This document shows positions 29,843 to 62,564 of a stretch of DNA of 63,107 nucleotides, piece after piece. Source of the DNA: Clostridia bacterium (GTDB lineage: Bacteria > Bacillota > Clostridia > UBA1212). The position numbers were made by a program, and so were the translations under genes. Location: positions 1-63,107 of the forward strand of contig JAGDAX010000052.1 of NCBI GenBank assembly GCA_017848335.1. The letters are read 5' to 3'. Each line of letters starts with the position of its first letter. Within the stretch, counting starts at the first letter, position 1. The notes below the pieces were generated by a model that searched no databases, was not told the origin of the DNA, and saw nothing but the letters and a program-made list of their open reading frames with translations.

Positions 29843-29859
29843 CTGTGTGTCCTGCCTTT

Positions 29860-30022
29860 GTGCCGTGCTTTTGCGTGTCGTGTTTTTGCGTGCCGTGCTT
29901 TTACGTGTCGTGTTTTTACGTGTCGTGCTTTGCCTGCCGTGCTTTTGCGTGCCGTGCTTTTACGTGTCGTGCTTTGCCTGCCGTGCTTCTGCGTGTCGTG
30001 TTTTAACGTGTCGTGCTTGTGC
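29860..30022. repeat. 14-15 bp tandem repeat array, 11 units (GTGYCGTGYTTTTRC)
   Basis: Units read directly from 29860, ending 17 nt upstream of the response-regulator ATG. Confidence 0.85.
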
Positions 30023-33136: not shown

Positions 33137-33152
33137 CGGGGGAGGTGTTTTT

Positions 33153-38400: not shown

Positions 38401-38792
38401 CGTGGAAGTTCGTCAAGTGGTGGATGAGCGAGCCCGTCCAGGTGGCTTACGCACAGGAGGTCGAGGCGACCTTCGGCGTTGCTTCGAGATGGAACACTGC
38501 CAACAGATACGCCATCAATTCCATGGCTTACAGCGACGAGGAGCTGGCCGTCATTAACGAGCAGTGGTCGTACTTCACGGAGACGCCGGTCGTGCTCGGA
38601 GGCTATTACACCTCGCGTTACCTGATGACAGCGCTTAACCAGGCGGTCCTGCAGGGCGGCAACATCAGAATCGCTCTTGAGGACGCCGTGAGAGAGATCA
38701 ACAAGGAAATGAAACGTAAGCAAAACGAATTCTTCCCTGACGGTGTCGATTCAATCGTCTGGTCAGAGTACAGAGAAAAGGGGGTGAGCTGA
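35442..38792 (+). CDS. Very large extracellular solute-binding protein (family 1) with N-terminal CBM-like beta-sandwich domains
   Basis: N-terminal TM anchor; WKFSVPKDGWYEIGFRY CBM-like segment; C-terminal FTPNTGIKVNV, GTAPDVA, YAIPETQGW..LFYRTDIL, PSTWDEV. Confidence 0.8.
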   Translation: MDKKLKRRIIVLSVLGVLVVGLLVFLIVRASLKTGSRQFAIDNNDTMVFNPFVENEERSDNSLLEYGKVLTKYGTRYEKYAGEDIVLNAADFYGISFKIDTGDTVTLYRGDNGEIDTVSYRGKNYGYGQVKAKEFSFATDELLAKIEAVTSNLTFSEDYGYTLYEDKAAGRDDNGYTKAAEQEDRFGEVSGSIKADANALYYGKTLTSGSALEELTFVYKVDVPETALYSLEIEYFLPENRSNNTLVRFRVDNKYPFKEAASMELKRAYNFYDVGGLDIAGNEIRAQQQEIFKWQDTVITSPDGMYKNPYRFLVNSSANATPDKPRTISLTFAREPAVIRTIRLVAPLSSLSYADYKTANSFSESAIVKDAVTQVEFEVPDEKNTISIRSEWDGNYKTTPASYKVTRYNYFGGDRWANGGDGASWKFSVPKDGWYEIGFRYQSMLTDIVVYSEIKIDGVIPFEEMEEYCFPYSDGWRGASLIDADQKPYYFYLTAGEHIITLTSKVGPLRSSIQSLQESMDSISKLVNTVVSITGATRSSSGGYSVDKNRDWDLDKYIMGIEEEIKNYRDTFEAIYNDILEANGGVLPYYGSSVSVAKALFTRLSKGTEGLEDIPSSLNEITNSLSSLSTTLQNITEQPIAIDYMVVHGGDFNYKTCRSNGFQNLYVGAIQFGDSFRKDYTLVGSRDSSQMEKAKEIEVYVARGREYVEMLRNLIAEDFTPNTGIKVNVNMVSTGVEGLVMLRYVTGTAPDVAISVGAGSPVEYAARGALVAYNDLDGDGVDDNPEFTEFMDQFLPGAFTLSRYRGNYYAIPETQGWAALFYRTDILSEIGIDKIPSTWDEVYEILPRLQERNMDFCYNYGTGNLFPFLYQNKADIYDYNGLRSALDTEAAYNAFVEYADLYNKYNIPYAANFYMKFKLGDMPIGIGDMGLFCQLRYSAPEINGKWAMSPVPGHLMEDGTVDRSMGGSGTTCIMIKNKGDRLQSQEAWKFVKWWMSEPVQVAYAQEVEATFGVASRWNTANRYAINSMAYSDEELAVINEQWSYFTETPVVLGGYYTSRYLMTALNQAVLQGGNIRIALEDAVREINKEMKRKQNEFFPDGVDSIVWSEYREKGVS

Positions 38793-38793
38793 G

Positions 38794-39798
38794 ATGAGTA
38801 AAAAGAACAGAAAAAACGTTGATCAGGCGGGTACGGCCCCCGAAACAAACGAGGTGACCCGGTCTGACGGCAAAAAGCAGAAGGACTATACCAAATCTTA
38901 TTTCAGATACACGCTGCATGAGATGTGGACGCACAGAATGTCATACGTTATGATCGCGCCCTTCTTCATCTGCTTCATAGTCTTCGCGCTGCTTCCGCTT
39001 ATCGCTTCCGCGGTGCTCAGCTTCTTCTACTTTGACTCGCTGAGCTGGCCGCAGTTCAGATTCTGGGACAATTACATCTATCTGTTCGTCGAGGACTCGC
39101 TGTTCCTCAAGGCCTTCAGCAATACGCTGTATTACGCGGTCATTGTTGGCCCTGTGTCCTATATCGCTTCATATTTCTTCGCCTGGTTCATCAACCAGGT
39201 CCCCAAGAGACTGAAGCCCATATACACGCTGGCCTTCTACGCGCCGTCTCTCTGCAGCGGTATCGCCATGTCCGTCGTTTGGCTGGTTGTGTTCGCCAAC
39301 GACAGCCAGGGATACATTAACTCGCTGCTGCTGAACGCCGGACTGATCACGGAGCCCATACAGTTCCTCCAGAGCGTTCAATGGATAATGCCCGTCATTA
39401 TCATAGTCGCTCTCTGGTCGTCGCTGGGCGCGGGATTCCTTTCCTTCGTCGCCGGCTTCACCAACGTGGACAAGGAGCTTTACGACGCGGCAATGGTCGA
39501 CGGTATCACCTCCAGGTTCCAGAGACTTATTTACATCGATATTCCGCAGACAATGCCTCAGCTGCTGTTCTCCGCCGTTCTTACCATTACGGGTTCGTTT
39601 ACGGTGGGTGCGCTCAGCCAGACACTTGTCGGACACCCCAGCCCAGAGGACGCGGGTCTTACGGTAATGCTCCACCTTTCGGATTACGCAGGACAGCGTT
39701 TTGAGGTGGGTTACGCATCCGCTATAGCTGTGGTGCTTTCGGTCATTGTTCTTGGAATAGGTCGTCTTGCCTTCAGGCTTCTCAGTGATAAGGGGTGA
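38794..39798 (+). CDS. Carbohydrate ABC transporter permease
   Basis: 6 TM; EAA-like loop ELYDAAMVDG. Confidence 0.9.
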   Translation: MSKKNRKNVDQAGTAPETNEVTRSDGKKQKDYTKSYFRYTLHEMWTHRMSYVMIAPFFICFIVFALLPLIASAVLSFFYFDSLSWPQFRFWDNYIYLFVEDSLFLKAFSNTLYYAVIVGPVSYIASYFFAWFINQVPKRLKPIYTLAFYAPSLCSGIAMSVVWLVVFANDSQGYINSLLLNAGLITEPIQFLQSVQWIMPVIIIVALWSSLGAGFLSFVAGFTNVDKELYDAAMVDGITSRFQRLIYIDIPQTMPQLLFSAVLTITGSFTVGALSQTLVGHPSPEDAGLTVMLHLSDYAGQRFEVGYASAIAVVLSVIVLGIGRLAFRLLSDKG

Positions 39799-39804
39799 TG
39801 ATTT

Positions 39805-40674
39805 ATGTTTCAAGTAGACGTTGATTATTTAAAGAAAGCTAAAAAACGCCGCGAATACGCCCCTACGGTCATTTCGATAGTGCTTGCACTGGCAGGCGTA
39901 GTATCCGCGCTTCCAATTGTTTACCTGGTCGTTACCGCTTTTAAGCCTGCCGAGGAGCTGTTCCTTTACCCGCCGAGGTTCTACGTTAAGAACCCGACGT
40001 TCAAAAACTTCAGCGACCTTGTCAGTATCACGGCCAATACGATGGTTCCTTTCACAAGGTACCTCTTCAACACGATAATAATTACCGCCGTTTACATGTT
40101 CGCGCTGATAGTGGTGGGCACCTTGGCCTGCTATCCGCTTTCAAAGCACAGGTTCCCCGGCGGCAACGCACTGTTCAAGCTGGTCACGAACGCGCTGCTC
40201 ATCATTTCGGGCGCGGCCGCGATCCCGAGCTATATCATTATCACGGGGCTGCACCTCGACAATACCTATCTGGTATACATCATACCGGGTCTTGCCAACT
40301 GTACGTGTATGTTCCTTTTGAAACAGTTCCTTGACCAGGTGCCTGACACTATCTTTGAGGCCGGCAAGATCGACGGAGCCTCCGAATGGCAGCTCTATAC
40401 CAAGATCGCCTTGCCGCTTCTGAGAAATGCTCAGGCTACGTGCGTAATTCTGACGTTCCCCGGCATCTGGGGCGACACGGCTACGTCCACCACTTACATT
40501 TACGACGAGCAGCTGAGAACCTTCGCGTTCTTTATGTCGACGCTGCAGGGCGGTCTTGCGAGGACCGGCGCCAACGCCGCGGCTTCACTTATCATGACGC
40601 TGCCCAGCATTATCGTGTTCGTCGTGTCGCAGTCAAGTGTTATGGACACCATGGCTCACTCGGGCATCAAATAA
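39805..40674 (+). CDS. Carbohydrate ABC transporter permease
   Basis: TAFKPAEELF.YPP, IFEAGKIDGASEW. Confidence 0.9.
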   Translation: MFQVDVDYLKKAKKRREYAPTVISIVLALAGVVSALPIVYLVVTAFKPAEELFLYPPRFYVKNPTFKNFSDLVSITANTMVPFTRYLFNTIIITAVYMFALIVVGTLACYPLSKHRFPGGNALFKLVTNALLIISGAAAIPSYIIITGLHLDNTYLVYIIPGLANCTCMFLLKQFLDQVPDTIFEAGKIDGASEWQLYTKIALPLLRNAQATCVILTFPGIWGDTATSTTYIYDEQLRTFAFFMSTLQGGLARTGANAAASLIMTLPSIIVFVVSQSSVMDTMAHSGIK

Positions 40675-40684
40675 GGAGGCTTAT

Positions 40685-42811
40685 ATGAGATCAAATTCGT
40701 TTCAAAAATTCGTAAGCCTCTCACTGGTGCTGCTGATACTGTTTTCGCTGCTGGCTGTGCTTCCGGCTTCGGCTTCGACGCCTTACTCCAATTATTTCAT
40801 TTCGCTGGCAGACGCATACAGTCTCACGCTTCCCACGCCCGAGGCGTACAGAATGGCGAAGGTGGTGGACTTCCCGGACACTGCTTCCGGAAAGCTCCTT
40901 AACCCTGAGGACATTTTCATCGGTCCCGACCAGCGCGTTTACATCGCGGACGCCGGCAACAACCGTATCGTAATACTCAAAAAGGATCTTACCTTCGATT
41001 TTGCGATCACAGGATTTGAGGAGGACGGCAGCAAGCTGAACAGCCCCACCTGCGTGTTTGTGGATGACGACGGCACCATTCTCGTGGCCGACTACGGCAA
41101 CAAGAGACTCGTTGAGTTTACGAAGTACGGCAATTTCAGATTCGCGTACCCGACGCCCTCCAGCGACATTCTCTCCAGCGATTTCAACTATCAGCCCCAG
41201 AGAGTCGTCAAAGACGAGAAGGGTTACATTTACGTATGCTCCGTGGGCGACTCCAACGGTATTCTCATGCTTTCCTCCGACGGCGAGTTCCGCAACTATT
41301 TCGGTACGAACAAGGTTGCGCTCACTTTTTGGGAGATGGTGGCCAGGTTCCTCTGGTCGAGAGAATCCCGTAAAGGTACCATCGTTACGCTGCCTTATAC
41401 GTTCAACAACATATTCATTTACGACGGCTACGTGTACGCCACCACCACCGGTTATTCAAGCGCACAGATGCGTAAGATCAACCCGGCCGGCTCCGACGTT
41501 CTTTACGCGGGCTACAGCTTCGCCGATCAGGGACTTCTGAGAGATCAGAACGACCTTCAGAACTTCATCGACGTCAGTGTAGACAAGGACCTCAATCAGT
41601 TCATTATCGACTCCACTTACGGCCGTGTTTACGAATACGACGAGTGGGGAAGAAACCTGTTTGTGTTCGGCGCTGTGGGTACGGGCTACGGCCAGTTCTC
41701 CAACCCCAAATCCCTTGAGGTGGACGACGAGGGCAACGTATACGTGCTCAACGGCGGCAACAACACCGTGTACGTGTTCGAGCAGACCGAGTTCGCCAAG
41801 CTGGTCCACAAGGCCAACAAAAACTACTCCAAGGGTATTTACGAGGAGGAGGACAATCCTGCCGACAAGACCGACAATGCCTTCGCGCAGTGGACAGAGG
41901 TCAAGAGGGAGGACAACTTCTATATACTGGCGCTCCAGTCCATAGGACAGATTCTCTGGAGGAAGGAGCATTACGGCGAAGCGCTCAAATATTTTGAGGA
42001 CGCGGAGGACGTCACCTGGTATTCCAAGGCATTCGAGGAGCTGCGCGCGGACTTCCTGGGCCAGTACTTCTCGATCATCGCCACCGTGGTCGTGGTTCTT
42101 CTGATAGGACTTCTGGTGTTCAGATCCGTTAAGAAACGCTACAGGATGAAGCATCCCAAGGACCCGAACAAGCGCACGGTGTTTACCTCCATAGGCGACT
42201 TCATAAAGCATATGGTGCACGTGGCGCTGCACCCTGTGGACGGCTTCGAGGACATCAGGTACGAGAATAAAGGCTCGTACAAGGATGCCTTCATAGTGAT
42301 GGCTGTTTACATCGTGACGCACCTTCTTTCGCTTGCCGTCACAGGCTTTATTTTCAGGGGAGGACAATCTCTCGAATTTATCGACTGGGGCTACGAATTT
42401 ATTTGGTGCCTGATTCCCTGGGTCGTTATCGCCATCGTAAACTACGGTGTCACGACAATACTCTACGGCGAAGGAAGGCTGAGAGACGTTATTATCGGCG
42501 GCGCTTACTGCCACGTGCCTCTCATCCTGATCGAGCTGCCGCTTGCCGTCGTTTCGCAGGTGCTGACGCTTCAGGAGAATTCGATCTACAATCTGATTTA
42601 TTACGTTTCCCTCGGCTGGGTCGTGATATTGGTATTTATGTGCATGAAGGGCGTCCACGGCTTCAACCCGCTCAAGGCAGTGCTTGTATTTATCCTCACT
42701 GCGGCAGGCGTGGCTGCGGTGGCGGTTCTGTTCATGATCGTGAGAGGCCTCGCAATTCAGCTTTATAACTTCATAGTACAGTTTGCAAAGGAGTTGAGTT
42801 ATCTTGTTTAA
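40685..42811 (+). CDS. NHL-repeat beta-propeller + TPR-like + C-terminal YIP1-like membrane domain protein
   Basis: AAGGAGG RBS then ATG 40685; signal peptide; NPEDIFI...YIADAGNNRIV repeats; helical YGEALKYF; HPVDGFEDIRYE followed by 5 TM. Confidence 0.75.
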   Translation: MRSNSFQKFVSLSLVLLILFSLLAVLPASASTPYSNYFISLADAYSLTLPTPEAYRMAKVVDFPDTASGKLLNPEDIFIGPDQRVYIADAGNNRIVILKKDLTFDFAITGFEEDGSKLNSPTCVFVDDDGTILVADYGNKRLVEFTKYGNFRFAYPTPSSDILSSDFNYQPQRVVKDEKGYIYVCSVGDSNGILMLSSDGEFRNYFGTNKVALTFWEMVARFLWSRESRKGTIVTLPYTFNNIFIYDGYVYATTTGYSSAQMRKINPAGSDVLYAGYSFADQGLLRDQNDLQNFIDVSVDKDLNQFIIDSTYGRVYEYDEWGRNLFVFGAVGTGYGQFSNPKSLEVDDEGNVYVLNGGNNTVYVFEQTEFAKLVHKANKNYSKGIYEEEDNPADKTDNAFAQWTEVKREDNFYILALQSIGQILWRKEHYGEALKYFEDAEDVTWYSKAFEELRADFLGQYFSIIATVVVVLLIGLLVFRSVKKRYRMKHPKDPNKRTVFTSIGDFIKHMVHVALHPVDGFEDIRYENKGSYKDAFIVMAVYIVTHLLSLAVTGFIFRGGQSLEFIDWGYEFIWCLIPWVVIAIVNYGVTTILYGEGRLRDVIIGGAYCHVPLILIELPLAVVSQVLTLQENSIYNLIYYVSLGWVVILVFMCMKGVHGFNPLKAVLVFILTAAGVAAVAVLFMIVRGLAIQLYNFIVQFAKELSYLV

Positions 42812-45698
42812 TGACGAAAATATAAAAAACAATATCGATAATGTTGATGACGCTTTGCAAAACGGCTTGAATGAAGCGGGCGATATCGCGGCTGAGACGG
42901 CGGAAAACGCTGCCGATACAGCGGAAAATGCCGCAGAAGCTGCGGAGAACGCAGCTGAGACGGTTGAGAATGCAGCCGATACTGCGGAAAATGCCGCAGA
43001 GGAGACTGCCGCCGGGATCGTCGACGGTATCAGTGACACGGCCTCCGACGAAATTTCCGCGCCCGAAGGCGCTTCGGATGAGGCTCCGGCGGACACCTCC
43101 AATGAGGAACACAAAACCTCGACCTTCCGTTCCTCGCTTGACGATGACGAGAGTCGCAAGGGCGTATACATCGACAAGGAAGAGGCCGAAAGATTCCTGG
43201 AGCAGCAGCGTAAGAAGAAGCTTCGCAAGCGCGTTATCACAACCATTGTTGCGGTGGTCGTGGTTCTGGTCGCGATCTTCGTCGTGTACAAGGTCGTATT
43301 CGGCGGCAACGTGGGCTGGATCAAATTCTCGCCCGAGTATATCGTGAAGAACGATCCCAAGCCCCTGGGAGCCCAGATCGCCTCAACCGACGGACTCACG
43401 GAGATTGCCCGAAAGGCCAACAAGCTTGGCGGCAATACGGTCCTCAAATTCTCGCCCGCAGATTCGCTTCTCATTCTCGAGGTGACAAACGGAGCAGGCG
43501 ATACCGAGGTCATCAGAAGCTGGCCCGCGCCGCTTCCGGACGAGATGGACCCGGCTACTGCAGGTCACGAATTCCCCAGGTACGCCGTCAACCACGACAT
43601 AGTTTCGTCCCTTGTAAGGCTCGGTTATACGGCCTCGAATCTTGACGGCGGTAAGGATTTCGGTATCAACCAGGTCACGAACGTCAAGATGACATACAAT
43701 ATGATCGAGGACGGCTTTAAGGCCACATACGTGGTGCCTGTTGAGGTCACCAAGACCGACTCTAACGCAGATACTTATAAGGTGTCTTTCGAATTCAGCT
43801 TCGCGGTTGAGTTTTATCTTGACGAAAACGGCGACCTTATCGTGAACGTGCCCAAAAAGGACGTCAAGGAGGCCAAGGACGAGGCCCATTACGATTCCGA
43901 TTCTGACGAGATGCCGAGAGTTGCGTCCATTTCCTGCCTGCCGTTTATCAGCGCCACCAGACAGGGCGACAGCGGCTATTTCGTGACTCCCGACGGCTCC
44001 GGCTCCCTCACTTATTTCGACGTGCCCAGGATCTCGCAGTTCGACGAGTACCAAAAGAGAATATACGGTTATGACGATATATTTGACGTGTTCAATTATC
44101 CCAACATGACCAACGAGTATATCTCGATGCCGGTGTTCGGCGTTGTGAACGGCTCAAAGATGCTCACCTGCTACGCCACGGAGAGCGAGGCCAACGCGTC
44201 GATTCTTATCGGGCAGCCGGGCATGAAGAACCTCAAGTTCTACTACATCAGCTACGTGTTCAAGTGGAGAGAGTTCTACCAGTCCAGGGTCAGCAAGAGC
44301 GGCTCGTCATACACCTTCCTGGAGGTGCCCTCGGGCATAGGCGACTTCACCATGCGCTATTCCTTCGAGATAGACAGCTCAAAGGAATACACCTACGTGG
44401 ACGTGGCGCAGAATGCCAGGGATTTCCTTCTTGATAAGTGGCAGCAGGACGGCGCAAGCCGCGAATACATGTCTCCCGAGAATATCAATTCCAAGGAGAA
44501 CAAGCGCAAGGATCCTGACCTTCTGAACCTTAAGATATTCTTCGCAGACGTCAACCGCGCCTCAGTGGGTCTTTTCACCACCTACAAGGTCATGACCACC
44601 TTTAAGCAGGCGGAGGGCATCATCGACGACACCGCTGCGGACAAGCCGCGCATCAGATATTCTCTGCTGGGATGGCAGCAGGGCGGCTACTTCGGCAATA
44701 TCATGCGCAGGTACAATATCAACAGCAGCGTAGGCGGCAAGAGCGGCCTCAAGAATCTTACGGAGCACGCCAGGACCGGCAACAACGACGTCTCGGCGGA
44801 CGTGAACATGCTCATCCTTTACGGAAGACCGAAGGGGGCGAGCCTCCGTCAGGCCACCGTCAAGAACCCGGGCACATTCTACGTCAATTACAAGCTCGTG
44901 AGCAACTCCGGCGTATTCCGGCGCAACGACAATTATTACTACATGAGTCCGCTTTATTACGATGACCACATGCTGTCCAAGGATATCAAGAATATCTCCA
45001 AGCTTGGATTTACGAGCGTCGACCTGCAGCAGCTGGGCGATCTGCTCTTCACGGATTACAACAAGGAAAACGCGCTCTTAAGGCAGCAGGCCCTCGAATA
45101 TTACAGAAAGTGGCTTGTTGAGTTTAAGAAGGAATTCGACAACGTATCCGTGTATTACGGCTTCGAGTACGCGGCCTCGGTAGCTGACAATATTCTCGAC
45201 ATTCCCACGGAGACGTCCAAGCTGTTCATCATCGACGAATCGATTCCGTTTATTCAGATAGTTTACCACGGTCTGATCGATTACTATTCTGACCCGGTCA
45301 ACAGAAGCTCTGACTACACCAAGACGATTCTGAGATCTATAGAATACGGCGCGTTCCTCACGTACGAGGTCACCGACGGACCGACAGAAGAGCTCAAGTA
45401 TACTAACTACAATTCGCTCTTTAAGGCCCAGTATGACGACGTGAAGAATGATATCAACAAGGGTTACGTCATTGCCGACAAGGCGCTTTCTCCCGTGGCG
45501 GACGCTGTCATCGTCGGCCACAGCTGCGTTGACAACGCGCGAAGCGGCAGCGTGTACCTTACGGAATATGACAACGGCGTCAGGATACTGGTCAACTACG
45601 GCTCCGAGGCATACGAGGCCGCGGAGGGAACGGTTCCCGCTCTTGGCATACTGGTTGTAAACGGCTCCTCCGCTGAGCCGGTGAATGTTGGAAAATGA
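42804..45698 (+). CDS. DUF5696-like membrane-anchored protein (GH-like barrel)
   Basis: Acidic repeat N-terminus, TM, VTPDGSGSLTYF, MPVFGV, MTTFKQAEGI, GWQQGG, IPFIQIVYHGLIDY, TEYDNGVRILVNY. Confidence 0.65.
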   Translation: MFNDENIKNNIDNVDDALQNGLNEAGDIAAETAENAADTAENAAEAAENAAETVENAADTAENAAEETAAGIVDGISDTASDEISAPEGASDEAPADTSNEEHKTSTFRSSLDDDESRKGVYIDKEEAERFLEQQRKKKLRKRVITTIVAVVVVLVAIFVVYKVVFGGNVGWIKFSPEYIVKNDPKPLGAQIASTDGLTEIARKANKLGGNTVLKFSPADSLLILEVTNGAGDTEVIRSWPAPLPDEMDPATAGHEFPRYAVNHDIVSSLVRLGYTASNLDGGKDFGINQVTNVKMTYNMIEDGFKATYVVPVEVTKTDSNADTYKVSFEFSFAVEFYLDENGDLIVNVPKKDVKEAKDEAHYDSDSDEMPRVASISCLPFISATRQGDSGYFVTPDGSGSLTYFDVPRISQFDEYQKRIYGYDDIFDVFNYPNMTNEYISMPVFGVVNGSKMLTCYATESEANASILIGQPGMKNLKFYYISYVFKWREFYQSRVSKSGSSYTFLEVPSGIGDFTMRYSFEIDSSKEYTYVDVAQNARDFLLDKWQQDGASREYMSPENINSKENKRKDPDLLNLKIFFADVNRASVGLFTTYKVMTTFKQAEGIIDDTAADKPRIRYSLLGWQQGGYFGNIMRRYNINSSVGGKSGLKNLTEHARTGNNDVSADVNMLILYGRPKGASLRQATVKNPGTFYVNYKLVSNSGVFRRNDNYYYMSPLYYDDHMLSKDIKNISKLGFTSVDLQQLGDLLFTDYNKENALLRQQALEYYRKWLVEFKKEFDNVSVYYGFEYAASVADNILDIPTETSKLFIIDESIPFIQIVYHGLIDYYSDPVNRSSDYTKTILRSIEYGAFLTYEVTDGPTEELKYTNYNSLFKAQYDDVKNDINKGYVIADKALSPVADAVIVGHSCVDNARSGSVYLTEYDNGVRILVNYGSEAYEAAEGTVPALGILVVNGSSAEPVNVGK

Positions 45699-45714
45699 AA
45701 GGAGGCCGATTCTT

Positions 45715-46596
45715 TTGAAAAAACAGGTCAAGTATAAGAAGAAGCTGGCGCATTCGCAGAAATATACGCTTCTTTCCTTCGAGAAGAAACGCTCGCTTGA
45801 AGGATTCGTGTTCGCGATTCCGTGGCTGCTTGGTTTTATCGCTTTTGTCGTCATTCCGCTGGCTCTGTCCGTAAGAATCAGTTTCTTCCAGACCGTGCTT
45901 ACCGACCTTTACGGATTCCGCGGCACCAGCACCTACGTTGGCTTCAATAACTACGTCAAGGTCATACAGGACCCGGCGGTAGGTGAGACGGTGTTCAGAT
46001 CCTTCGGAATGTCGCTCATAAAGGTGCCTGTCATCGTGGCATTCTCCCTTTTCGTGGCGGTGCTTCTGAAGCAGGATTTCCCCGGAAGGACAGCCTTCAG
46101 AGTCATATTCTTCATCCCGGTAATTCTTGCCGGTACCATTATGACATACCTTTTCCAGGACGGCGTCGGCAACATGAGCGTATTCAGCACGCTTACAACG
46201 GGCGTTCAGCAGCTAAATTCGTTTTTCGGCACCATAATGAGCAACATAGGCGCGATAATGTGGGCGTCAAGTGTTGAAATATTGATATTCCTGGCAGCGC
46301 TGCAGAGTGTTCCGGCTACGCTTTACGAGGTGGTCGAGCTTGACGGCGCGTCAGCCTGGGAAACCTTCTGGCACGTAACGCTTCCGTACATTTCGCCCTT
46401 CGTTATACTCAACTTCGTATACGCGATGGTCGACTCCTTCGTGGCGTCGGACAACCCTGTTATGTCTATCATGGACAGCATGACCAGGGAGGGAACGAAA
46501 TACGGTCAGGCCTCGGCTCTCAGCTGGCTTTACATGCTGGCGACACTTGCCGTTATACTTATCTTCATTCTCTTTACGAGGAGGTGGCTGAAGTAA
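45715..46596 (+). CDS. Carbohydrate ABC transporter permease
   Basis: GGAGG RBS then TTG 45715; GFVFAIPWLLGF, LYEVVELDGASAWETFWHVTLP. Confidence 0.88.
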   Translation: MKKQVKYKKKLAHSQKYTLLSFEKKRSLEGFVFAIPWLLGFIAFVVIPLALSVRISFFQTVLTDLYGFRGTSTYVGFNNYVKVIQDPAVGETVFRSFGMSLIKVPVIVAFSLFVAVLLKQDFPGRTAFRVIFFIPVILAGTIMTYLFQDGVGNMSVFSTLTTGVQQLNSFFGTIMSNIGAIMWASSVEILIFLAALQSVPATLYEVVELDGASAWETFWHVTLPYISPFVILNFVYAMVDSFVASDNPVMSIMDSMTREGTKYGQASALSWLYMLATLAVILIFILFTRRWLK

Positions 46597-47648
46597 TGGC
46601 TGATACTAAATCCGTCGTGGCCGGAGATTCTACTGTTGTTTTTGAAGACGTTTCCGGCGAATATGAAACGACTTCTGCCGCTGCCGCCGAGACCGCAAAG
46701 AAATCCGGCGGTATCAAGGGCTTCATTAAGCGCTATGAGAACCTGGGATACAGGGCAAAGAAGAAGATCACTTTTATCATCTCCAGAATCTTTGTCTACT
46801 TCGTTCTCATTGAGATGGCATATCTGTTCGTGCTTCCGTTTATATACATTTTCAGCACGTCGCTTATGACTTCTCAGGACTATATGGATCCCACCGTGCA
46901 GTACATACCCACCACGATCAACTGGGACAATTTCAAGAAGGCCTTCGAGGCTCTGGATTACGTGAAGTCCTTCATCAACTCCATGGGAACCTCGCTGCTT
47001 TCGGCAATATTCCAGACGACTTCCTGTGCTCTTATCGGGTACGCGATAGGCAGATACAAATTTAAGGGCAGGAATCTCATATTCCTCTTCGTTATACTGG
47101 TTCTGCTTATCCCGCCGCAGGTCATGATTCTGGCTTCCTACGGTATCTGGGCAACGCTCAGCCTGGTCAACACCTGGGCTCCCGTGGTGATCCCGACCAT
47201 TTTCGGTCTCGGACTGAGAGGCGCTCTGTTTGTGCTCATCTATATGTACTTCTTCCAGAGAATTCCGGACGTTATGGACGACGCCGCCCGTATCGACGGC
47301 GCAGGGCCTTTGAGAGTGTTCGGACAGATCATGCTTCCGCTGGTCAAATCAGCTGTCGCCATCGTTTTCATATTCTCGTTCGTGTGGCACTGGAACGACA
47401 ATTACGAGGCGCCGATGTACATGTACCTTGACGGACACCAGACGCTGCAGCCGAGGCTCCAGAACATCCAGATGTACTACAGCAAATACGCAACCAGCCA
47501 GGCCGTAATGTCGGAGCTCGAAAAGTCACTCTCCGAGCCGATGCTTTTCGCCGGATGCCTTATGGTCATGCTTCCCGTTCTGATAGTTTACGTGTTTGGA
47601 CAGAAGCAGCTTGCAGCCGGTATCGAGCGTATAGGTGTTATTGAGTAA
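46596..47648 (+). CDS. Carbohydrate ABC transporter permease
   Basis: ATG overlaps previous TAA; GYAIGRYKFKGR, DDAARIDGAG, FSFVWHWND. Confidence 0.88.
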   Translation: MADTKSVVAGDSTVVFEDVSGEYETTSAAAAETAKKSGGIKGFIKRYENLGYRAKKKITFIISRIFVYFVLIEMAYLFVLPFIYIFSTSLMTSQDYMDPTVQYIPTTINWDNFKKAFEALDYVKSFINSMGTSLLSAIFQTTSCALIGYAIGRYKFKGRNLIFLFVILVLLIPPQVMILASYGIWATLSLVNTWAPVVIPTIFGLGLRGALFVLIYMYFFQRIPDVMDDAARIDGAGPLRVFGQIMLPLVKSAVAIVFIFSFVWHWNDNYEAPMYMYLDGHQTLQPRLQNIQMYYSKYATSQAVMSELEKSLSEPMLFAGCLMVMLPVLIVYVFGQKQLAAGIERIGVIE

Positions 47649-47665
47649 AAGGAGAATAAGCTGCC

Positions 47666-49117
47666 ATGAAACAATTGACCAGAAGGATAATTGCGATTTC
47701 CGTCTGCATGATCTTGGCGTTGTGCCTTTTTGCGGGATGTACGTCCTCCAAAAAGGATGACGCGAATAAAGTACAGCCGACTCCGAGACCGACGCCCGAG
47801 AACCTCGTCACCGAGATCAAGCTTTCCGGCTATCTGTATTCCGACCGGGCCACCAACCTCGACAAGTTCAAGGCGGTCTATGCCCAGGACTACCCGGGTG
47901 TTGAAGTCGAGATTGACCTCGACAAGGTCTCCACGGAGCAATATTTCGAGGTTCTCGACGACCTGATGGAGGGCGATGATCTCGAAGCCGCCGGCGACGT
48001 CATATTGCTGGACGCTCCCAGAATGGCCAAATATGCCAAGGAAGGGAAGCTCATCGACCTGTCCGCGTACGTCGGCGAGGTGCTGAATTTTGATACCTAC
48101 CGGAAGATAAATCCCGCCGCGGACCTTCTGCCGGCCGCCTATGACGCCTGCATTTACGAGGACGACCTTTATATGGTGGCGGTCGAGTACAACCACAAGT
48201 TCGTGCTGCTCAATTATTCGCTGATAGAGGCCGCGGGATTCAGCTTCCCCAAGGATGACTGGACATGGGACGACCTGGTTGAGATCGCCGAGGCCGTAAA
48301 AGCAAACGGTGTGGACAGGCCCGTCGCCATGAATTACCTCGACTATTCCGTGTGGGGCGCCTTCGCCAGAAGCAACGGCAAGGAGATATACGACTTCATA
48401 GGCAAGACCGAGACCAGGGACATCAATCTTACGCATCCTGACGTGGTGTCCGGCATCGAGGCGCTGGCTGACATTGTCGATCCCGCCAGAGGACTGGTGG
48501 AATGCATCGATTCCAAGGACATTGAGCCCGAGAATATCTCAAAGTACGCTTTTATTGTCGCGGATCATGAGGACATCGCCAACTGGCACGAGACTCTTAT
48601 CGCCGCCGAAAGTGAGGAGACTCCCGAGGCCTCGAGATGGGTCTGGGACTACATCCACTTCCCGAGGTGGAACGATCCCGATTATGCCAAAAACGGCATC
48701 TATCATCAGGCGATCGCCGCCAACGTTTACGGCTTCGCGGTGGTAAATCACGGAAAATCCGAGCAGTACACGGACGATTTTTACAAGGCCTGCGCGTATC
48801 TGGCGCTTTACGCCACAGTCAAGGACGCCGCCAAGGCATATGCTGACGAAGGACAGTCGGTGCCCGCCAATAAAGAAGCCAACGCCGAGAAATTCTGGCG
48901 CGAATATCCTATGGCCGGTAAGAACTCTTCAGTGTTCTCCAACTTCGCCGAGAGCGCGGATTTCGCCGGCTCCCTCAGCTGCTTTATGCCCGTAATGTCC
49001 GCCGGCGAGCTTGACATATCGTATGCTATCGACGGATATCTTTCCGGCGAGAGAACGATGCTTGAGAGCCTGCAGGAGCTGCAGGACAAGGCACAGGCCG
49101 GATGGCTTGAAAGGTAA
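47666..49117 (+). CDS. Extracellular solute-binding lipoprotein (family 1)
   Basis: Lipobox LFAGC; YPGVEVE, GKLIDLS, PKDDWTWDDL. Confidence 0.8.
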   Translation: MKQLTRRIIAISVCMILALCLFAGCTSSKKDDANKVQPTPRPTPENLVTEIKLSGYLYSDRATNLDKFKAVYAQDYPGVEVEIDLDKVSTEQYFEVLDDLMEGDDLEAAGDVILLDAPRMAKYAKEGKLIDLSAYVGEVLNFDTYRKINPAADLLPAAYDACIYEDDLYMVAVEYNHKFVLLNYSLIEAAGFSFPKDDWTWDDLVEIAEAVKANGVDRPVAMNYLDYSVWGAFARSNGKEIYDFIGKTETRDINLTHPDVVSGIEALADIVDPARGLVECIDSKDIEPENISKYAFIVADHEDIANWHETLIAAESEETPEASRWVWDYIHFPRWNDPDYAKNGIYHQAIAANVYGFAVVNHGKSEQYTDDFYKACAYLALYATVKDAAKAYADEGQSVPANKEANAEKFWREYPMAGKNSSVFSNFAESADFAGSLSCFMPVMSAGELDISYAIDGYLSGERTMLESLQELQDKAQAGWLER

Positions 49118-56732: not shown

Positions 56733-58229
56733 ATGAGAGAACTGTTCAAACCCGATCGGATCCTGTCGAATATTCTGCCTGAACAGAAGCTGAAGCAGGG
56801 CGCAGATTACGTCCTGTCGCAGTTTGTTCTCCCATACGAAACCGGCGGGAGGGTGCTTCTTTGCAACGTATTGACGCACCGGATCATCGAGCTGAACGAA
56901 GCCGCCGGTGAAGGGTACGGAATGCGCTTCACGGGCAGCGAGGTCGGGGACAGTGAGCTTCTGACAACGCTTGTGAAATGGTATTTCCTTGTACCGGAGG
57001 GCAAGGACGAATGCGCTTTCTACGAGGGGATTTCCCGCATGATGAGGGCGTACACCAGGCCCAAAGGCGTGAACAGCTACGTGATCATGCCGACGCTGGG
57101 GTGCAACGCCAGGTGCGTTTACTGCTACGAGGAGGGCATGGAGCAGACCTCGATGACCCCGGAGACCGTTGAGCAGACCGCGCGTTTTATTCTCGAGACC
57201 AACAGCAATAAGACTATCCGCATCAACTGGTTTGGCGGTGAGCCTCTGGCAGGCGAGCCGGCGATTGACCGGATCTGCGGGATCCTTCGCGGGGCCGGCG
57301 CAAGCTACAGGAGCAGCATGATCTCCAACGGAAGCCTGATCACCGCTGAGACCGTCAGAAAAATGAAGGACCTCTGGAACGTCAGGGACATCCAGATCTC
57401 GATGGACGGAGCCGAACAGGATTATTGCGCCCGCAAGAATTATACCTTCGGGGGCAGCTGCTACCGCCGTGTCATGAATTCCGTCAGCGCCATGAGCGAG
57501 GCCGGGATCCGGGTCGTGATCCGCTGCAACGTAGACGCGGACAACTGGACGGGGATACCGCAATTTCTGGACGATCTCAAGGGCGAGGTCGGTCACAAGG
57601 ATAACGTCGCTGTGTATTTCAGTCCGCTTAATGCGATTCGGGCGAGCGTTGACGACGTTACGATGTGGAGCAGGATCGTCGCGGCGAGGCCGATGGTTGA
57701 GGCCGCCGGCTTTAAGCCCGCCGATTATCTCGGGTTCGGCAGCAGATTCCGCATTTCCCACTGTATCGCAGACGCAGGAAGCGCAGTCGTGGCGCCGGAC
57801 GGCAGCCTTTATCTGTGCGAGCATTGTGTTCCGGAGAGCCGCTATGGGGACGTTTTCCGGGGAGTCACCGACAAGGCGGCGATGGATGCATTCGCGCGGA
57901 CGGACTTCACACGCGAGAAGTGCCGGAAATGCCCGTTCCTGCCCGATTGCACAAGCTTTTCCGCGTGCCCCGTGGAGGATTTTCATTGCAGGGAAGTCAA
58001 GGAAATGCTTGCAAAGGATATGTTGAAACTGCTGGATGAAAAGAGTTATAATATAGGTGCTCCGATGGGGGAGGCGCGTTCTGCCGGTCTTGGTGAATGC
58101 GGCGCCGAGGATTCCCACGGGAGCGGCTTCGGGGACAGCTTAAAGGATCGATTCGAAAATGCCCCCGGGGATGGCTTCGATAATGGCCCGGAGGACGGAT
58201 TCGGGGCGAGAGCAGGATCTTTGTGCTGA
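56733..58229 (+). CDS. Radical SAM/SPASM-domain peptide maturase
   Basis: CNARCVYC (C124/C128/C131), WFGGEPL, QISMDG; SPASM C-x12-G-x4-C ... CxxC-x5-C-x5-C-x6-C; N-terminal LLCNVLTHRIIEL RRE-like extension. Confidence 0.92.
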   Translation: MRELFKPDRILSNILPEQKLKQGADYVLSQFVLPYETGGRVLLCNVLTHRIIELNEAAGEGYGMRFTGSEVGDSELLTTLVKWYFLVPEGKDECAFYEGISRMMRAYTRPKGVNSYVIMPTLGCNARCVYCYEEGMEQTSMTPETVEQTARFILETNSNKTIRINWFGGEPLAGEPAIDRICGILRGAGASYRSSMISNGSLITAETVRKMKDLWNVRDIQISMDGAEQDYCARKNYTFGGSCYRRVMNSVSAMSEAGIRVVIRCNVDADNWTGIPQFLDDLKGEVGHKDNVAVYFSPLNAIRASVDDVTMWSRIVAARPMVEAAGFKPADYLGFGSRFRISHCIADAGSAVVAPDGSLYLCEHCVPESRYGDVFRGVTDKAAMDAFARTDFTREKCRKCPFLPDCTSFSACPVEDFHCREVKEMLAKDMLKLLDEKSYNIGAPMGEARSAGLGECGAEDSHGSGFGDSLKDRFENAPGDGFDNGPEDGFGARAGSLC

Positions 58230-58244: not shown

Positions 58245-58505
58245 ATGAAGCTGAGAGATCAATTTATCACACAGGATTTAGATGATATACAATATTTGAT
58301 TCCCGTTGGCGGTGAAGCCTTCAGCGGTATTGTTCGCAGCAATAAAACCGCTGCTTTCATTGTCGAGCGCCTTAAGAGCGAAACTACCGAGGAGCTGATA
58401 GTTGACGCCCTTTTTGAAAGATTCGACGCGCCAAGGGAAGAAATTGCAAAAGACGTCAGGGACATTCTCGACATTTTGCGCGGGATCAACGCCCTTGAGG
58501 AATAG
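58245..58505 (+). CDS. Stand-alone PqqD-family RiPP recognition element (RRE)
   Basis: 86 aa; YLIPVG...NKTAAFIVERL...IVDALFERFDA..EEIAKDVRDILDIL winged-helix pattern. Confidence 0.85.
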   Translation: MKLRDQFITQDLDDIQYLIPVGGEAFSGIVRSNKTAAFIVERLKSETTEELIVDALFERFDAPREEIAKDVRDILDILRGINALEE

Positions 58506-58637: not shown

Positions 58638-58838
58638 ATGTCAAAGGGAAAATATGAAAAACCGGTGATGGATGTCGTGAGTTTTAAGACGGATATAATC
58701 ACAACGTCAGGTTGTCCGCCGGTCGGAATCTGCATAGACGTATCTCCGTGCAGCTCATACGGCACGTGTTCGCCTGATATTATTATCATTCCTTGCGATT
58801 CCGGGTGTAATGATAACTTGCATAATCATACGCTTTGA
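58638..58838 (+). CDS. Putative RiPP precursor peptide (YxxP leader, six-Cys core)
   Basis: GGAG RBS; leader KYEKPVMDVVSFKTDIITTS; core GCPPVGICIDVSPCSSYGTCSPDIIIIPCDSGC... Confidence 0.8.
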   Translation: MSKGKYEKPVMDVVSFKTDIITTSGCPPVGICIDVSPCSSYGTCSPDIIIIPCDSGCNDNLHNHTL

Positions 58839-59108
58839 GGGGTGCGAGTTATGTGTCCCCTGTCTGGCGAAAAGGAGTCCGCGTCTGCATTTTAAGACAC
58901 GAACGGTTCACGCGAAAGCGTGCTCAGTGAGAGGCTTAATATGCTGCGCGGTGGCCAGAGACCACCGCGCGTTCTGCCCTCAAGGCTCATAATTCGATGC
59001 TCATGGCTCGATTCCTTATATTCCGCAAATCAATTTTTACATTCCGATTCTTACAACAGTCATTGCGTTGCTTTCATAAATCATAGCTTATAATTTTAGA
59101 CCGTTATT

Positions 59109-61721
59109 ATGCTTTCACCACAAGACGATTCACGCAAAAAGCTTTTTTCGTTTTTGTTCGCTCTTGCCGCGATTTTGGCGGTTCTTGTGTGTTCTTTTAT
59201 CGTTCGCGGGATCGCATACCGCGTGCCGGCTGCGGACGCTCAGGAGAAGCAATACTTTTTGGACGACGACGGCGAGCCCTACCTTACGGAGATGGACTCC
59301 TATTTCTTTTTCCGCAAGGCGGGCGAAATGGCTGAAGAGGGGAAGATCAACCTTTACAATTACAGGTCGAGCGATGCGCTTATCGGGCAAAGAGTGTACG
59401 CGAATGAGGACGCAGGCGGGACGCCGCTCGGCCTTTCGGTGCTGTGTTACCTGATCTGGTTTTGCTTTCTGCGCGTGTTCGGAGTGAGCCTTTATCAGAC
59501 TGCGGTCTGGATGGGGCCCGTATTTGGAAGCCTTGCCGCGGTGCCTGCGTTTCTTTACGTCAAACGAAGAGCCGGGCTGGCGGGCGGTATTGTCGCGGGA
59601 ATTCTTGCCGGGTGCGCGATTCCGTTCGTGATCCACACTCACGCCGGCTTTTTTGACACCGACATGGTGCTTGCGATCCTGCCGCTGACGTTCCTGCTTT
59701 GCCAGATCAGAAGCATGCAGGAAAGCAAGCTCGCAAAGCAGATCGTGTTTGCGCTTCTTTCCGCGGCGGCGCTGGTGGTCATGTCATATTTTTGGGTGGC
59801 CTTCAACGCGTATTGCGCCCTGTCGCTTATTTGCACGGTAATATCCGTCGTGCTGATATCGGCGGTGCCCTCAAGGTTTATGAGCGGTCAGCCGTGGCGC
59901 AGGAAGTGGCAAATGATCCGCGGAGGTCTGCTTGCCCAGGGCTTCACGTACATTCTGCTGTTTGTGACCGGAGGGGTCGCCGCGCTGAAGAGAGTACTGT
60001 CGGTCCTTGATCTGCTCAGGTCCTCGTCGGGTGCCGGCGCCGCCGCGCTTCCCGGAGCATACGATTTTGTGGGCGAAATGAGGCGGATCCGCAAGCTTCC
60101 CGGGCTTAGTCCCGTGGAGCTCGTGAAGGCAAATACGGGCTCGGTCATGGGAATGCTTGGCGGGCTCATTCCTTGCCTGCTCGCGGCGGCGGCTATCCCT
60201 CTTGCGATACTGATTTTGTTTTTAAAGGCGAAGCGGAAGGGCGTTGACGCGTCCGGGGGAGAAGGGAACGGTGTCGCAGAGCTTATGGTTGACGCCGGCT
60301 TCCTGCTGCCCTGGCTTGTTCTCTCGCTCTATCTCGCATTTTCGAGCGTGAGATATTGTGAGATCGCCGTGCTTCCGGTTTGCCTGCTTTGCGGTACCGC
60401 CGTTGGCTGCGTGTTTTCCGCTGCCGGGAAGGTGGGAAGAGCAGGTGCGCCTTTCGGAAGCTACGGTAATGCCTCCGAAGCTTCCGGCGTTCTTAGTGCA
60501 GACTCCGGGAACTCTCGCGGGAAATCAAACGCGCATCGTGGTATATCCGCGATTCTGCGCAGGATATCCGGCTTTTTCCGCGAAAGATCCGATATTGTTA
60601 TTCGGGCGGCGGGTATTTTGCTTGCTGCTGCGGCTGTTATTCCTGTGATCATAGGCGCGATAACGTACTCCTCGACCGTGAAGTCTTCCGTGACCGACAC
60701 CAAAAGCCTCGCAATGCAGTACGTGCGCGAGAATACTTCCCGGGATGCCTCTGTCGCAGGCTGGTGGGACGACGGTTATTTCACCGAATATGCGTCAGGC
60801 AGGAGGACTCTTACGGACGGCGGCAGCAGCAGCGGCCTGCTGGACTGGCTTACCGCTAAGGCGCTTCTTACGGACGATTTGAAGCTGTCCTCCAATATTT
60901 TCCGCATGCTCAACGAGAGCGGCGGCGATGCCCTGGAATTGATCATCGGGCAGGGAGTTGACGGCAGCGAGGCTGCAGAGCTTCTCATGGAGCTTTTGGC
61001 GGCGGATCGCTTAACCGCGGCTGTAATTCTGGACGGGAAGGGGCTCGATAAGAGCATTCTCGACAAGACGCACCCTCTCGAAAGCAACGAGATCGTGCTG
61101 ACGCTGAGCACGGACCTTCTCGGTAAAATGAGGGCCCTGAATTATTATGCCTTTTGGAATCCGGCGAAAGGACGCTCGGAGATGAACGCGGGCATAACGG
61201 TTTCGGACGGGTCGAAGGTTTTGAGCGAAGAGGGCAGAGCAGACGTTACGATGTTCCGGTCTGACGCGGTTGTTCATGTGACCGTGAATGCTGACGGCAG
61301 CGTTTCGGCGAATTACTCCGACGCCACGGGGAAGGTTTATGAGCTCGGGCGCCTCTGCGTATGGAAGGACGGTGTGCTCGTCAGCGACGAGTGCATTGAA
61401 AGCCGTTTGACCGGCGATGGCGGTGAAGTGAGGTCATACCCGACCGGCTGCGTGCTTCTGATCGAGGGCGACCGTATTTGCGGCTTGCTGTGTCCCCGCG
61501 AGGTTTGCGGCAGTGTGCTGGTAAGGTGCCTTGTATGCGAGGATGAATCCGTCGGGACGCTTGAGCTTCTGGGCACGTGGTACGGCGAAACCGAAGCGGA
61601 GCCCTGTGCCGCCCAAAGAAGGCTGGGCGTTTACTCGGAAAGCACGTGGGTGACGCAGGTTTGGAGACTGCGGGGTGAAGTGTTTCGGAGCTCTGCACTT
61701 GGCCACCGCGCAGCATTTTGA
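59109..61721 (+). CDS. STT3/AglB/PglB-family oligosaccharyltransferase-like protein
   Basis: Multi-TM N-terminal half; EMDSY (aa 61-65), HAGFFDTD (DxD, aa 183-185), WWDDG (aa 552-556), RRTLTDGG; soluble C-terminal domain. Confidence 0.85.
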   Translation: MLSPQDDSRKKLFSFLFALAAILAVLVCSFIVRGIAYRVPAADAQEKQYFLDDDGEPYLTEMDSYFFFRKAGEMAEEGKINLYNYRSSDALIGQRVYANEDAGGTPLGLSVLCYLIWFCFLRVFGVSLYQTAVWMGPVFGSLAAVPAFLYVKRRAGLAGGIVAGILAGCAIPFVIHTHAGFFDTDMVLAILPLTFLLCQIRSMQESKLAKQIVFALLSAAALVVMSYFWVAFNAYCALSLICTVISVVLISAVPSRFMSGQPWRRKWQMIRGGLLAQGFTYILLFVTGGVAALKRVLSVLDLLRSSSGAGAAALPGAYDFVGEMRRIRKLPGLSPVELVKANTGSVMGMLGGLIPCLLAAAAIPLAILILFLKAKRKGVDASGGEGNGVAELMVDAGFLLPWLVLSLYLAFSSVRYCEIAVLPVCLLCGTAVGCVFSAAGKVGRAGAPFGSYGNASEASGVLSADSGNSRGKSNAHRGISAILRRISGFFRERSDIVIRAAGILLAAAAVIPVIIGAITYSSTVKSSVTDTKSLAMQYVRENTSRDASVAGWWDDGYFTEYASGRRTLTDGGSSSGLLDWLTAKALLTDDLKLSSNIFRMLNESGGDALELIIGQGVDGSEAAELLMELLAADRLTAAVILDGKGLDKSILDKTHPLESNEIVLTLSTDLLGKMRALNYYAFWNPAKGRSEMNAGITVSDGSKVLSEEGRADVTMFRSDAVVHVTVNADGSVSANYSDATGKVYELGRLCVWKDGVLVSDECIESRLTGDGGEVRSYPTGCVLLIEGDRICGLLCPREVCGSVLVRCLVCEDESVGTLELLGTWYGETEAEPCAAQRRLGVYSESTWVTQVWRLRGEVFRSSALGHRAAF

Positions 61722-62111: not shown

Positions 62112-62171
62112 CAAACTGATATGCAGAGTCTTCTTTGCTGTCATTTTGACTGCTTCATTCAAGGAGTTTTT

Positions 62172-62564
62172 ATGAATACAGCTGTAAGGTATTATTCCAG
62201 GACAGGGAATACAAGGATCATAGCGGAGACCATCGCCAAATGCTTTGACACGGCGGCGGTGTCTGTTGACGCGGAGGGGGCAGCACTTGACGACGGCTGC
62301 GACGTTCTCTTCATCGGCGGCGCTCTCTATGCCTACGGGCTCGACAAGGCTCTTGCCGGGTATCTCGCGAATATTGACGCTTCCAAGGTCGGCAAGGCCG
62401 TTGTGTTCTCGACGTCCTGGCTCTCAAAGCACGCTGTTGACCTTATCAAAAAGGCGCTTGCGGCCAAGGGTATTGACGTCTGTGAGGATTTCTTCTATTC
62501 GAGGGGCAAGCCATCCGGGAAGGACGTCAAGGCCGCCGAGGAGTTCGCGAAGAAATTTGCGTGA
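62172..62564 (+). CDS. Short flavodoxin-like protein
   Basis: AAGGAG RBS, ATG 62172; YYSRTGNTRIIAETIA FMN loop, LFIGGA, VFSTS. Confidence 0.85.
   Translation: MNTAVRYYSRTGNTRIIAETIAKCFDTAAVSVDAEGAALDDGCDVLFIGGALYAYGLDKALAGYLANIDASKVGKAVVFSTSWLSKHAVDLIKKALAAKGIDVCEDFFYSRGKPSGKDVKAAEEFAKKFA

Follow-up and report, generated by a model that had tools for sequence, protein, structure and literature searches.

For eukaryotes, archaea and a small range of Gram-negative bacteria, asparagine-linked glycosylation by STT3-type oligosaccharyltransferases (OSTs) is an established process. Sugars are also found on ribosomally made peptides with post-translational modifications (RiPPs) of Firmicutes: the glycocins, like sublancin and glycocin F, are ribosomal, disulfide- or cross-link-stabilised, glycosylated bacteriocin-type peptides with an ABC exporter, and soluble GT2 enzymes attach their sugars, as S- or O-linkages, within the cytoplasm from nucleotide sugars. 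To our knowledge, glycosylated RiPPs use soluble nucleotide-sugar glycosyltransferases, and none of the radical SAM (rSAM)/SPASM systems of the SynChlorMet (Scm), TIGR04463 or CteB type is known to include a membrane oligosaccharyltransferase. The stretch of DNA analysed here (the window) is a whole 63-kb contig (63,107 nt) of a 2.4-Mb metagenome-assembled genome (MAG) of a Clostridia bacterium, 79% complete, and it carries the single STT3 gene of that genome directly downstream of genes for a radical SAM peptide maturase, a PqqD-family protein and a short precursor peptide. We propose, with a probability of roughly 60%, that this locus encodes an OST-dependent N-glycosylated RiPP, in which STT3 would tailor the precursor at a C-terminal sequon. 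The genes of the module are as follows.

56733-58229, plus strand: radical SAM/SPASM peptide maturase, 498 aa, with a CNARCVYC cluster motif (Pfam Radical_SAM and Fer4_12)
58245-58505, plus strand: PqqD-family leader-recognition protein (RiPP recognition element, RRE), 86 aa (Pfam PqqD, E 4e-13)
58638-58838, plus strand: cysteine-rich precursor peptide, 66 aa (ribosome-binding site and conserved leader)
59109-61721, plus strand: STT3-family oligosaccharyltransferase, 870 aa (Pfam, PDB, AlphaFold2, Foldseek and motif alignment)

The sole long open frame at 59109-61721 is confirmed to encode a genuine STT3-family OST with every catalytic motif. Its product matches Pfam STT3 over residues 41-432 (E 3.3e-36) and STT3-PglB_core, the core domain of STT3, PglB and AglB, over residues 548-603 (E 2.9e-7), both above the curated cut-offs. 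A sequence search of the PDB returned Campylobacter lari PglB (E 4e-12) and human STT3B (8e-5) as well as STT3A and the C-terminal domains of archaeal AglB. The AlphaFold2 model, built from an alignment of 41 homologues (pLDDT 89.3, pTM 0.88), has 13 long helices and then a mixed domain, corresponding to a multi-span GT-C N-terminus and an extracytoplasmic core. The best Foldseek match to this model is PglB (5ogl; E 2e-19, target TM 0.68), followed by human and yeast STT3 and A. fulgidus AglB; the best 19 matches are all OST catalytic subunits, with DPY19, ArnT, PMT and ALG enzymes ranking much lower. An earlier, sequence-only reading of this DNA had called the gene an STT3/AglB-type OST and had named clustering with PMT or ArnT as what would speak against this; the Foldseek ranking, led by PglB, STT3 and AglB, together with the motifs rules out such other GT-C enzymes (PMT, ArnT, DPY19).

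The motifs quoted in that reading (EMDSY, DTD, WWDDG, DGG and DLLGKMRAL) can all be located in the 870-aa translation: TEMDSY at residues 60-65, HTHAGFFDTDM at 176-186, WWDDG at 552-556, DGG at 570-572, AKALLTDD...SSNIFRML at 584-600 and STDLLGKMRAL at 667-677. The histidine motif it gave as H-x-x-G-x-x-DTD is also present, although the spacing is H-x3-G-x2-DTD, since His176 aligns with PglB Arg147. Such a set of motifs is far more than chance would give. In the motif alignment with PglB, D63 corresponds to D56, H176 to R147, D183 and D185 to D154 and D156, E323 to E319 and R415 to R375, and D669-x3-K673 takes the place of PglB's MxxI, which is also the case in Methanobacteriales; these positions and WWDDG are invariant or almost so across the family. 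Invariant in the 41-sequence alignment are E61, D63, D183, T184, D185, E323, R415, W552, W553, D554, G556, D570, G571 and G572, and the window copy keeps all 57 residues that are invariant in the family. It also has WWDDG and the DK-like motif, which form the signature of the pocket for the +2 Ser/Thr. The codons of the main sites are as follows.

59295-59297, plus strand: D63, the catalytic Asp of external loop 1 (EL1)
59655-59663, plus strand: D183-T-D185, the DxD motif
60075-60077, plus strand: E323, the glutamate of external loop 5 (EL5)
60762-60776, plus strand: WWDDG 552-556, the WWDxG motif
61113-61127, plus strand: D669..K673, the DK-like motif

Judged by these residues and the fold, the protein is most likely a catalytically competent OST of archaeal type, resembling Methanobacteriales AglB. 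It scores below the cut-offs of both the PglB equivalog model (NF050801; 62.6 bits against 1300) and the archaeosortase-A-associated STT3 model (TIGR04154; 22.4 bits against 450). A PglB orthologue is ruled out by the former score along with a separate tree clade and a weaker BLASTP match.

The upstream genes have the generic makeup of a RiPP cluster, namely a short precursor with a conserved leader and a variable core beside an RRE and a modifying enzyme. Among 67 weak NCBIfam model matches of the rSAM protein the best is TIGR04463, a rSAM/SPASM RiPP maturase model (138.5 bits, below its cut-off of 525), and other peptide maturases come next; the enzyme thus represents a maturase family related to TIGR04463 but distinct from it. 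Its best PDB match is CteB (5wgg; E 6e-11), and by this homology a thioether of sactipeptide or ranthipeptide type is predicted. Orthologues of the rSAM protein (41-57% identity) adjoin STT3 in at least 12 lineages, and those of the PqqD protein (63-72% identity) are always encoded directly after the rSAM gene. The precursor (MSKGKYEKPVMDVVSFKTDIITTSGCPPVGICIDVSPCSSYGTCSPDIIIIPCDSGCNDNLHNHTL) starts 5 nt after GGGAG, a good ribosome-binding site. Its leader, approximately residues 1-24 (MSKGKYEKPVMDVVSFKTDIITTS), is followed by a core with six cysteines and the C-terminal sequon N63-H64-T65, encoded at 58824-58832. The leader pattern M..YEKPxMxVVxLxDxxIxTS is kept in 58 peptides, 12 of them STT3-adjacent and 46 from the database, and the cores of these leader-sharing peptides are hypervariable, some with a single Cys. 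Leu16, nearly invariant elsewhere, is replaced by Phe in the window's leader.

In the window STT3 is the last gene of the module rSAM, PqqD, precursor, STT3. At least 12 lineages, with unrelated flanks and with STT3 identity as low as 38%, show this order beside STT3 as well (L002, L004/L008, L011, L013, L014, L023, L086, L088, L096, L104, L163/L007, L319 and L320). The modules of these relatives are usually followed by genes for an ABC exporter and an NTP_transf_5 protein, and often accompanied by those for a 142-159-aa S24-like peptidase and a ScmC/HprK-like protein. Rearrangements are seen as well: in L014 the rSAM and PqqD genes are relocated downstream with the precursor still directly before STT3, and in L013 and L319 a GT4 glycosyltransferase gene lies between precursor and STT3, which links the module to glycans. 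Recurrence with different flanks, along with the coupling of sequon and STT3 set out below, rules out a chance adjacency of RiPP genes and STT3.

The presence of a sequon in the precursor follows that of STT3. All 12 of the first-found distinct STT3-adjacent precursors have at least one N-X-S/T among their final 16 residues (in the window, NHT at 63-65). When each core is shuffled, the joint probability over the 12 cores is 9e-6 for a sequon at any position and 9e-10 for one at the C-terminal position, both figures being upper bounds on the significance as the peptides are related. No acidic residue at position -2 is required in the sequons of these precursors. Searching with a profile of the 12 peptides added 46 others, of which 36 contain a sequon and 10 do not; the prediction was checked on the genomic context of five of these 46. 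The sequon-bearing P0303 and P0273 have STT3 as the next gene, while the sequon-less P0275, P0284 and P0287 lie in homologous clusters without STT3 where the ABC gene directly follows the precursor (order: ScmC, rSAM, PqqD, S24-like, precursor, ABC, NTP_transf_5). In sum, a sequon is found in 14/14 STT3-adjacent precursors versus 0/3 of those in STT3-less clusters. The rSAM enzyme, PqqD protein, peptidase and exporter thus work without a sequon, tying the motif to STT3.

Closely related strains show the same coupling. From the rSAM gene through the whole leader, the three strain variants L316, L317 and L320 share 99% identity, and what follows the leader sets them apart. In L320 the core contains a sequon and STT3 is intact. 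In L316 the core is without a sequon and STT3 is missing downstream. L317 combines a sequon core with an STT3 that recombination has cut to 108 codons, and it carries a further cassette with no sequon. L313, which lacks STT3, falls inside the STT3-positive clusters of the rSAM tree. L316, L317, L320, L315 and L100 are arrays of units made of a PqqD fragment, an S24-like peptidase, a precursor and, in some, STT3. Recombination within the conserved stretches of leader and peptidase exchanges these units. Such cassette shuffling suggests a bacteriocin-like role, by analogy.

The STT3 homologue might instead carry out a different reaction, on another acceptor atom or as a ligation of glycopolymer or peptide to the envelope, or N-X-S/T might serve the rSAM enzyme. 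The versatility of the GT-C superfamily, WWDDG in place of WWDYG, and a Cys often found 3-9 residues after the sequon would fit such a role. However, the residues for N-OST catalysis and for recognition of the +2 Ser/Thr are all invariant and the spacing from Cys to Asn varies; in addition, clusters with the same rSAM, PqqD, S24 and ABC genes do without the sequon where STT3 is absent, so none of those four proteins needs the motif. Either alternative is highly improbable.

About 60 STT3 homologues in the protein database, at 33-58% identity, all come from metagenome bins of Clostridia, Lachnospiraceae or Oscillospiraceae, and STT3 of Methanothermobacter and Methanobrevibacter forms the next tier. 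A pattern scan of species-representative genomes found 142 STT3 relatives, nearly all in rumen or gut Firmicutes, including the cultured strains Lachnospiraceae MC2017, AD3010 and [Clostridium] aminophilum, with a few Saccharibacteria and one Tenericutes bin among them. In BLASTP the window's STT3 gives 115+100 bits against Methanothermobacter and 52+45 bits against Campylobacter PglB, and many distant Firmicutes proteins have higher scores with Methanothermobacter AglB than with the window's STT3. A maximum-likelihood tree of 93 sequences (quick search, LG+G4, few archaeal outgroups) splits off Campylobacterota PglB with a Syntrophobacteraceae protein, then two DPANN-type archaeal proteins, and all remaining sequences fall in one clade (SH-aLRT 93), a polytomy of Methanobacteriaceae AglB and four to five Firmicutes clades. 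The window's terminal branch is long (0.47).

The sequence-only reading had judged the protein closer to methanogen AglB than to PglB, and the next-best homologues, BLASTP scores, tree and motifs agree: the window's STT3 groups with Methanobacteriaceae AglB apart from Campylobacterota PglB. It had also suggested transfer from gut or rumen archaea. Transfer of this STT3 lineage between archaea and bacteria, in either direction, is plausible from the tree, a polytomy with few archaeal outgroups. The two substitutions that it suggested may alter acceptor or donor specificity, Arg to His before the DTD and Tyr to Asp in WWDYG, are both there. The His, at the position of PglB Arg147, is a trait of the whole STT3 lineage common to methanogens too, and the Asp marks most of the close clade. 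L014 has WWDYG together with RiPP genes, and WWDDG does not strictly track association with peptide genes.

The tree divides this close clade in two. Of subclade A, with 16 rows including the window, 12 distinct lineages have the RiPP genes and four do not. In subclade B they are never present, and STT3 overlaps the start of a gene for a signal-peptide protein, an arrangement of translational coupling. This partner (L005 12376-13617; also downstream of STT3 in L097, L113, L098 and L102) is a signal-peptide or lipoprotein-like protein with N-x-T sites in its C-terminal region and a conserved PFPxP at its end. From these features it looks like a dedicated protein substrate of STT3, and dedicated neighbouring substrates accordingly look like a theme of the family. 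Farther away, in the cultured rumen isolate Lachnospiraceae bacterium MC2017 (L311 3576-14337), STT3 lies in a glycosylation-type operon in the order GT4, a 409-aa protein of unknown kind, GT2, DUF2304, STT3 and GT1, then a 1267-aa Big_2 surface protein.

The window's contig belongs to a Clostridia bacterium. The IMPDH, GreA and LysRS genes just upstream of the module keep both synteny and 64-93% identity with their counterparts in the four same-genus genomes examined, and among named IMPDH proteins the closest belong to 'Clostridia bacterium' MAGs (88%), followed by Oscillospiraceae (~75%). The module also contains a repeat found throughout the genome.

58867-58964, no strand given: ~95-nt genome-wide repeat, REP/MITE-like, with a 9-bp GC hairpin (blastn)

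At least 80 further copies, at 76-92% identity by blastn, are spread over many contigs of the MAG. They are intergenic and often in tandem pairs, with the hairpin GCGCGGTGG...CCACCGCGC, and the repeat looks like a REP/MITE-type element of the host species. Synteny, IMPDH affinity and the shared repeat place the contig in the Clostridia, as the claim of an STT3-type OST in a Firmicute had implied, and they rule out a mis-binned archaeal contig; the host is an uncultured rumen or gut Clostridia bacterium. As a host repeat lies inside it, the RiPP-STT3 module has been resident long enough to receive one. No STT3 homologue was found in 11 same-genus or same-family genomes, and among genomes sampled evenly from the phylum (400) and the class (300) the only strong match was the window's own genome. 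The module sits at a synteny break after LysRS, and the STT3 gene is patchy in distribution and was most likely acquired horizontally. A copy of the locus at 90% identity or more lies on another contig, of 189,939 bp. For both an IMPDH (P0003) 95% identical to the window's and an STT3 (P0313) only 52% identical, the longest contig measures 40,766 bp, so that a sister strain may have a highly diverged version of the module in the corresponding place.

Several observations weigh against an N-glycosylated peptide as the product of this locus. Phylogenetically, the precursors are not independent of one another, and there are few STT3-less controls: two clusters with three cores, plus L316. Of the lipid-linked oligosaccharide genes that the sequence-only reading had proposed to look for, none lies in the window's cluster, and DUF2304/GT2-type donor genes are absent from the MAG; what the MAG does have is a Bac_transf initiating phosphoglycosyltransferase. 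The window's locus is without the genes for the ABC exporter, S24-like peptidase, NTP_transf_5 and ScmC-like proteins of most relatives. The repeat element and a gap of 270 nt part the precursor from STT3. Lastly, four lineages of the same STT3 subclade (L009, L012, L016 and L019) have STT3 without rSAM, PqqD or precursor, showing that the enzyme can have other substrates. In one of them (L009, also L282) the region 7566-7994 is at the same chromosomal site as in L004 and L319; the S24-like peptidase gene is kept directly before STT3, and rSAM, PqqD, precursor, ABC and NTP_transf_5 genes have been lost.

The persistence of STT3 in these four lineages would be expected of a general N-OST for surface or secreted proteins, like PglB or AglB, that merely rides with RiPP genes on a mobile island and does not use the peptide as substrate. 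Distant Firmicutes homologues in glycosylation operons by large surface proteins, as in MC2017, and the pairing of subclade B STT3 with secreted proteins fit this explanation as well. It seems unlikely, however, given that the sequon follows the presence or absence of STT3 among near-identical clusters, that the precursor gene keeps its place directly before STT3 where other genes have moved (L014), and that the module is kept across unrelated genomic flanks.

The incompleteness of the window's locus bears on another explanation, that the module is a decaying or incomplete remnant of a horizontally acquired cluster, having lost its exporter, peptidase and accessory genes and making no mature product. 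The repeat inserted between precursor and STT3, the long terminal branches of both STT3 (0.47) and rSAM (0.70), the leader Phe in place of Leu16, and the lack of the cluster in all 11 same-genus and same-family genomes are in line with decay. In relatives with the precursor directly before STT3 the two genes are roughly 20-130 nt apart. The gap of 270 nt in the window is due to insertion of the repeat; it holds no known RNA element (Rfam) and its RNA fold is overall insignificant. Nor was an orthologous ABC exporter found elsewhere in the MAG, where matches were generic (at most 28% identity). Yet all four open reading frames are intact, the family-invariant STT3 residues are kept, and the MAG is only 79% complete. 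Moreover, paralogues of the ScmC-like, PqqD and S24-like genes on contig C2 and of NTP_transf_5 on C52 could act in trans. A remnant seems quite unlikely on balance. The paralogues on C2 are part of a second RiPP-like locus at ~23000-30000 (locus L284 8200-14400, minus strand), which encodes a ScmC/HprK-like protein, a PqqD protein, an S24-like peptidase fusion and several short peptides with a related leader. Their cores include SPIDDLGWDNF, SPIEPPMDGF and SPIDNPGGWDNF, none with a sequon, and no rSAM or STT3 gene was identified among the open reading frames listed for the 11 kb examined.

Biosynthesis of an N-glycosylated peptide by the window's module might proceed in four steps. The PqqD protein would bind the 66-aa precursor via its YEKP leader, and the rSAM/SPASM enzyme would then cross-link the cysteines in the cytoplasm, with the thioether being predicted by homology only. 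The peptide would next be exported, in this cluster by an exporter and S24-like peptidase encoded elsewhere. On the outer face of the membrane, STT3 would move a glycan from a polyprenyl-phosphate-linked donor onto the sequon Asn (N63-H-T). The donor could come from the host's undecaprenyl-phosphate pathways, given the one Bac_transf enzyme. The fuller scenario, to which we would give an even chance from the sequence evidence, combines a new RiPP class, cross-linked by rSAM and N-glycosylated outside the cell by an archaeal-type STT3 with a lipid-linked glycan, with an STT3 lineage shared by rumen methanogens and Clostridia through horizontal gene transfer and a precursor-STT3 cassette swapped by leader recombination in hypervariable bacteriocin-like loci. 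Firmicutes would thereby gain their first functional N-OST system, and peptide natural products their first OST-dependent member.

Three further loci of the window were noted. The nearest lies just downstream of STT3.

62121-62564, plus strand: flavodoxin-like protein, 147 aa (weak Pfam Flavodoxin_5/3 and NCBIfam flav_short, E 3e-8; all below cut-off)

It might serve as reductant for the rSAM enzyme, and its membership of the module is uncertain; the relatives examined have no such gene next to the cluster, so that its location here is probably a coincidence. Upstream, positions 31643-34922 encode an MBOAT acyltransferase and then an AlgX-like SGNH protein, a pair typical of O-acylation of polysaccharides or teichoic acids. 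A long sugar-uptake locus at 35442-49117 has two ABC permease sets and solute-binding proteins of 1116 aa and 483 aa, along with an NHL-repeat/Yip1 membrane protein and a 964-aa DUF5696 protein.

An STT3-family OST in Clostridia is a known family in an unexpected phylum. Our literature search found no paper on STT3 in Clostridia or Lachnospiraceae, nor on an OST in a RiPP cluster, and a phylogenetic study of OST homologues deals only briefly with bacterial ones (PMC4973528). By their gene content and sequons, the STT3-adjacent clusters point to an undescribed class of N-glycosylated peptide natural products. If so, rumen and gut Clostridia hold a large Gram-positive reservoir of STT3 enzymes, some of them in cultured strains (Lachnospiraceae MC2017, [Clostridium] aminophilum) where the proposal is directly testable, and the MC2017 operon offers a tractable system for N-glycosylation in Firmicutes. 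Gene exchange between methanogens and bacteria in the gut would then be probable, and a membrane OST that tailors a RiPP at a short sequon lacking an acidic -2 residue would be a new natural-product logic. For glyco-engineering, too, single-subunit OSTs that have relaxed sequons and act on small peptides are of practical interest.

Among described enzymes, the closest named relatives of the window's STT3 are the AglB proteins of Methanobacteriales (Methanothermobacter and Methanobrevibacter STT3), with 25-30% identity over ~90% of the length. Both have PY(F/L)(S/T)EMDSY, H-T-x-x-G-F-F-D-T-D-M, an EL5 motif S/F-V-x-E (SV-x-E-like), WWDxG, D-x3-K and an insertion after EL1, and both fall in the same tree clade. 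They differ in WWDDG versus WWDFG/WWDYG, in the Cys-rich C-terminal domain of the window's protein, and in the carrier, undecaprenyl in the bacterial host and dolichyl for Methanobacteriales AglB. AglB serves general S-layer and archaellin glycosylation, whereas the window's gene is in a RiPP cluster. PglB of C. lari and C. jejuni (5ogl, 3rce) is the best structural match, with the catalytic Asp, DxD, Glu, Arg and WWD aligned, and is likewise a bacterial single-subunit OST. However, the window's STT3 has His for Arg147 and a DK-like motif for MxxI and belongs to a separate clade, and PglB needs an Asp or Glu at -2 that the sequons of STT3-adjacent peptides lack. With the Scm cassette, TIGR04463-type maturases and CteB, the module has in common a rSAM/SPASM enzyme, a stand-alone PqqD protein and a Cys-rich precursor, and its relatives also share ScmC-like, NTP_transf_5 and ABC genes with these systems, although the window's rSAM protein scores below every curated family cut-off. 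Compared with the glycocins, the proposed modification would differ in both linkage and place, being an N-linkage made outside the cytoplasm by a GT-C OST from a lipid-linked donor.

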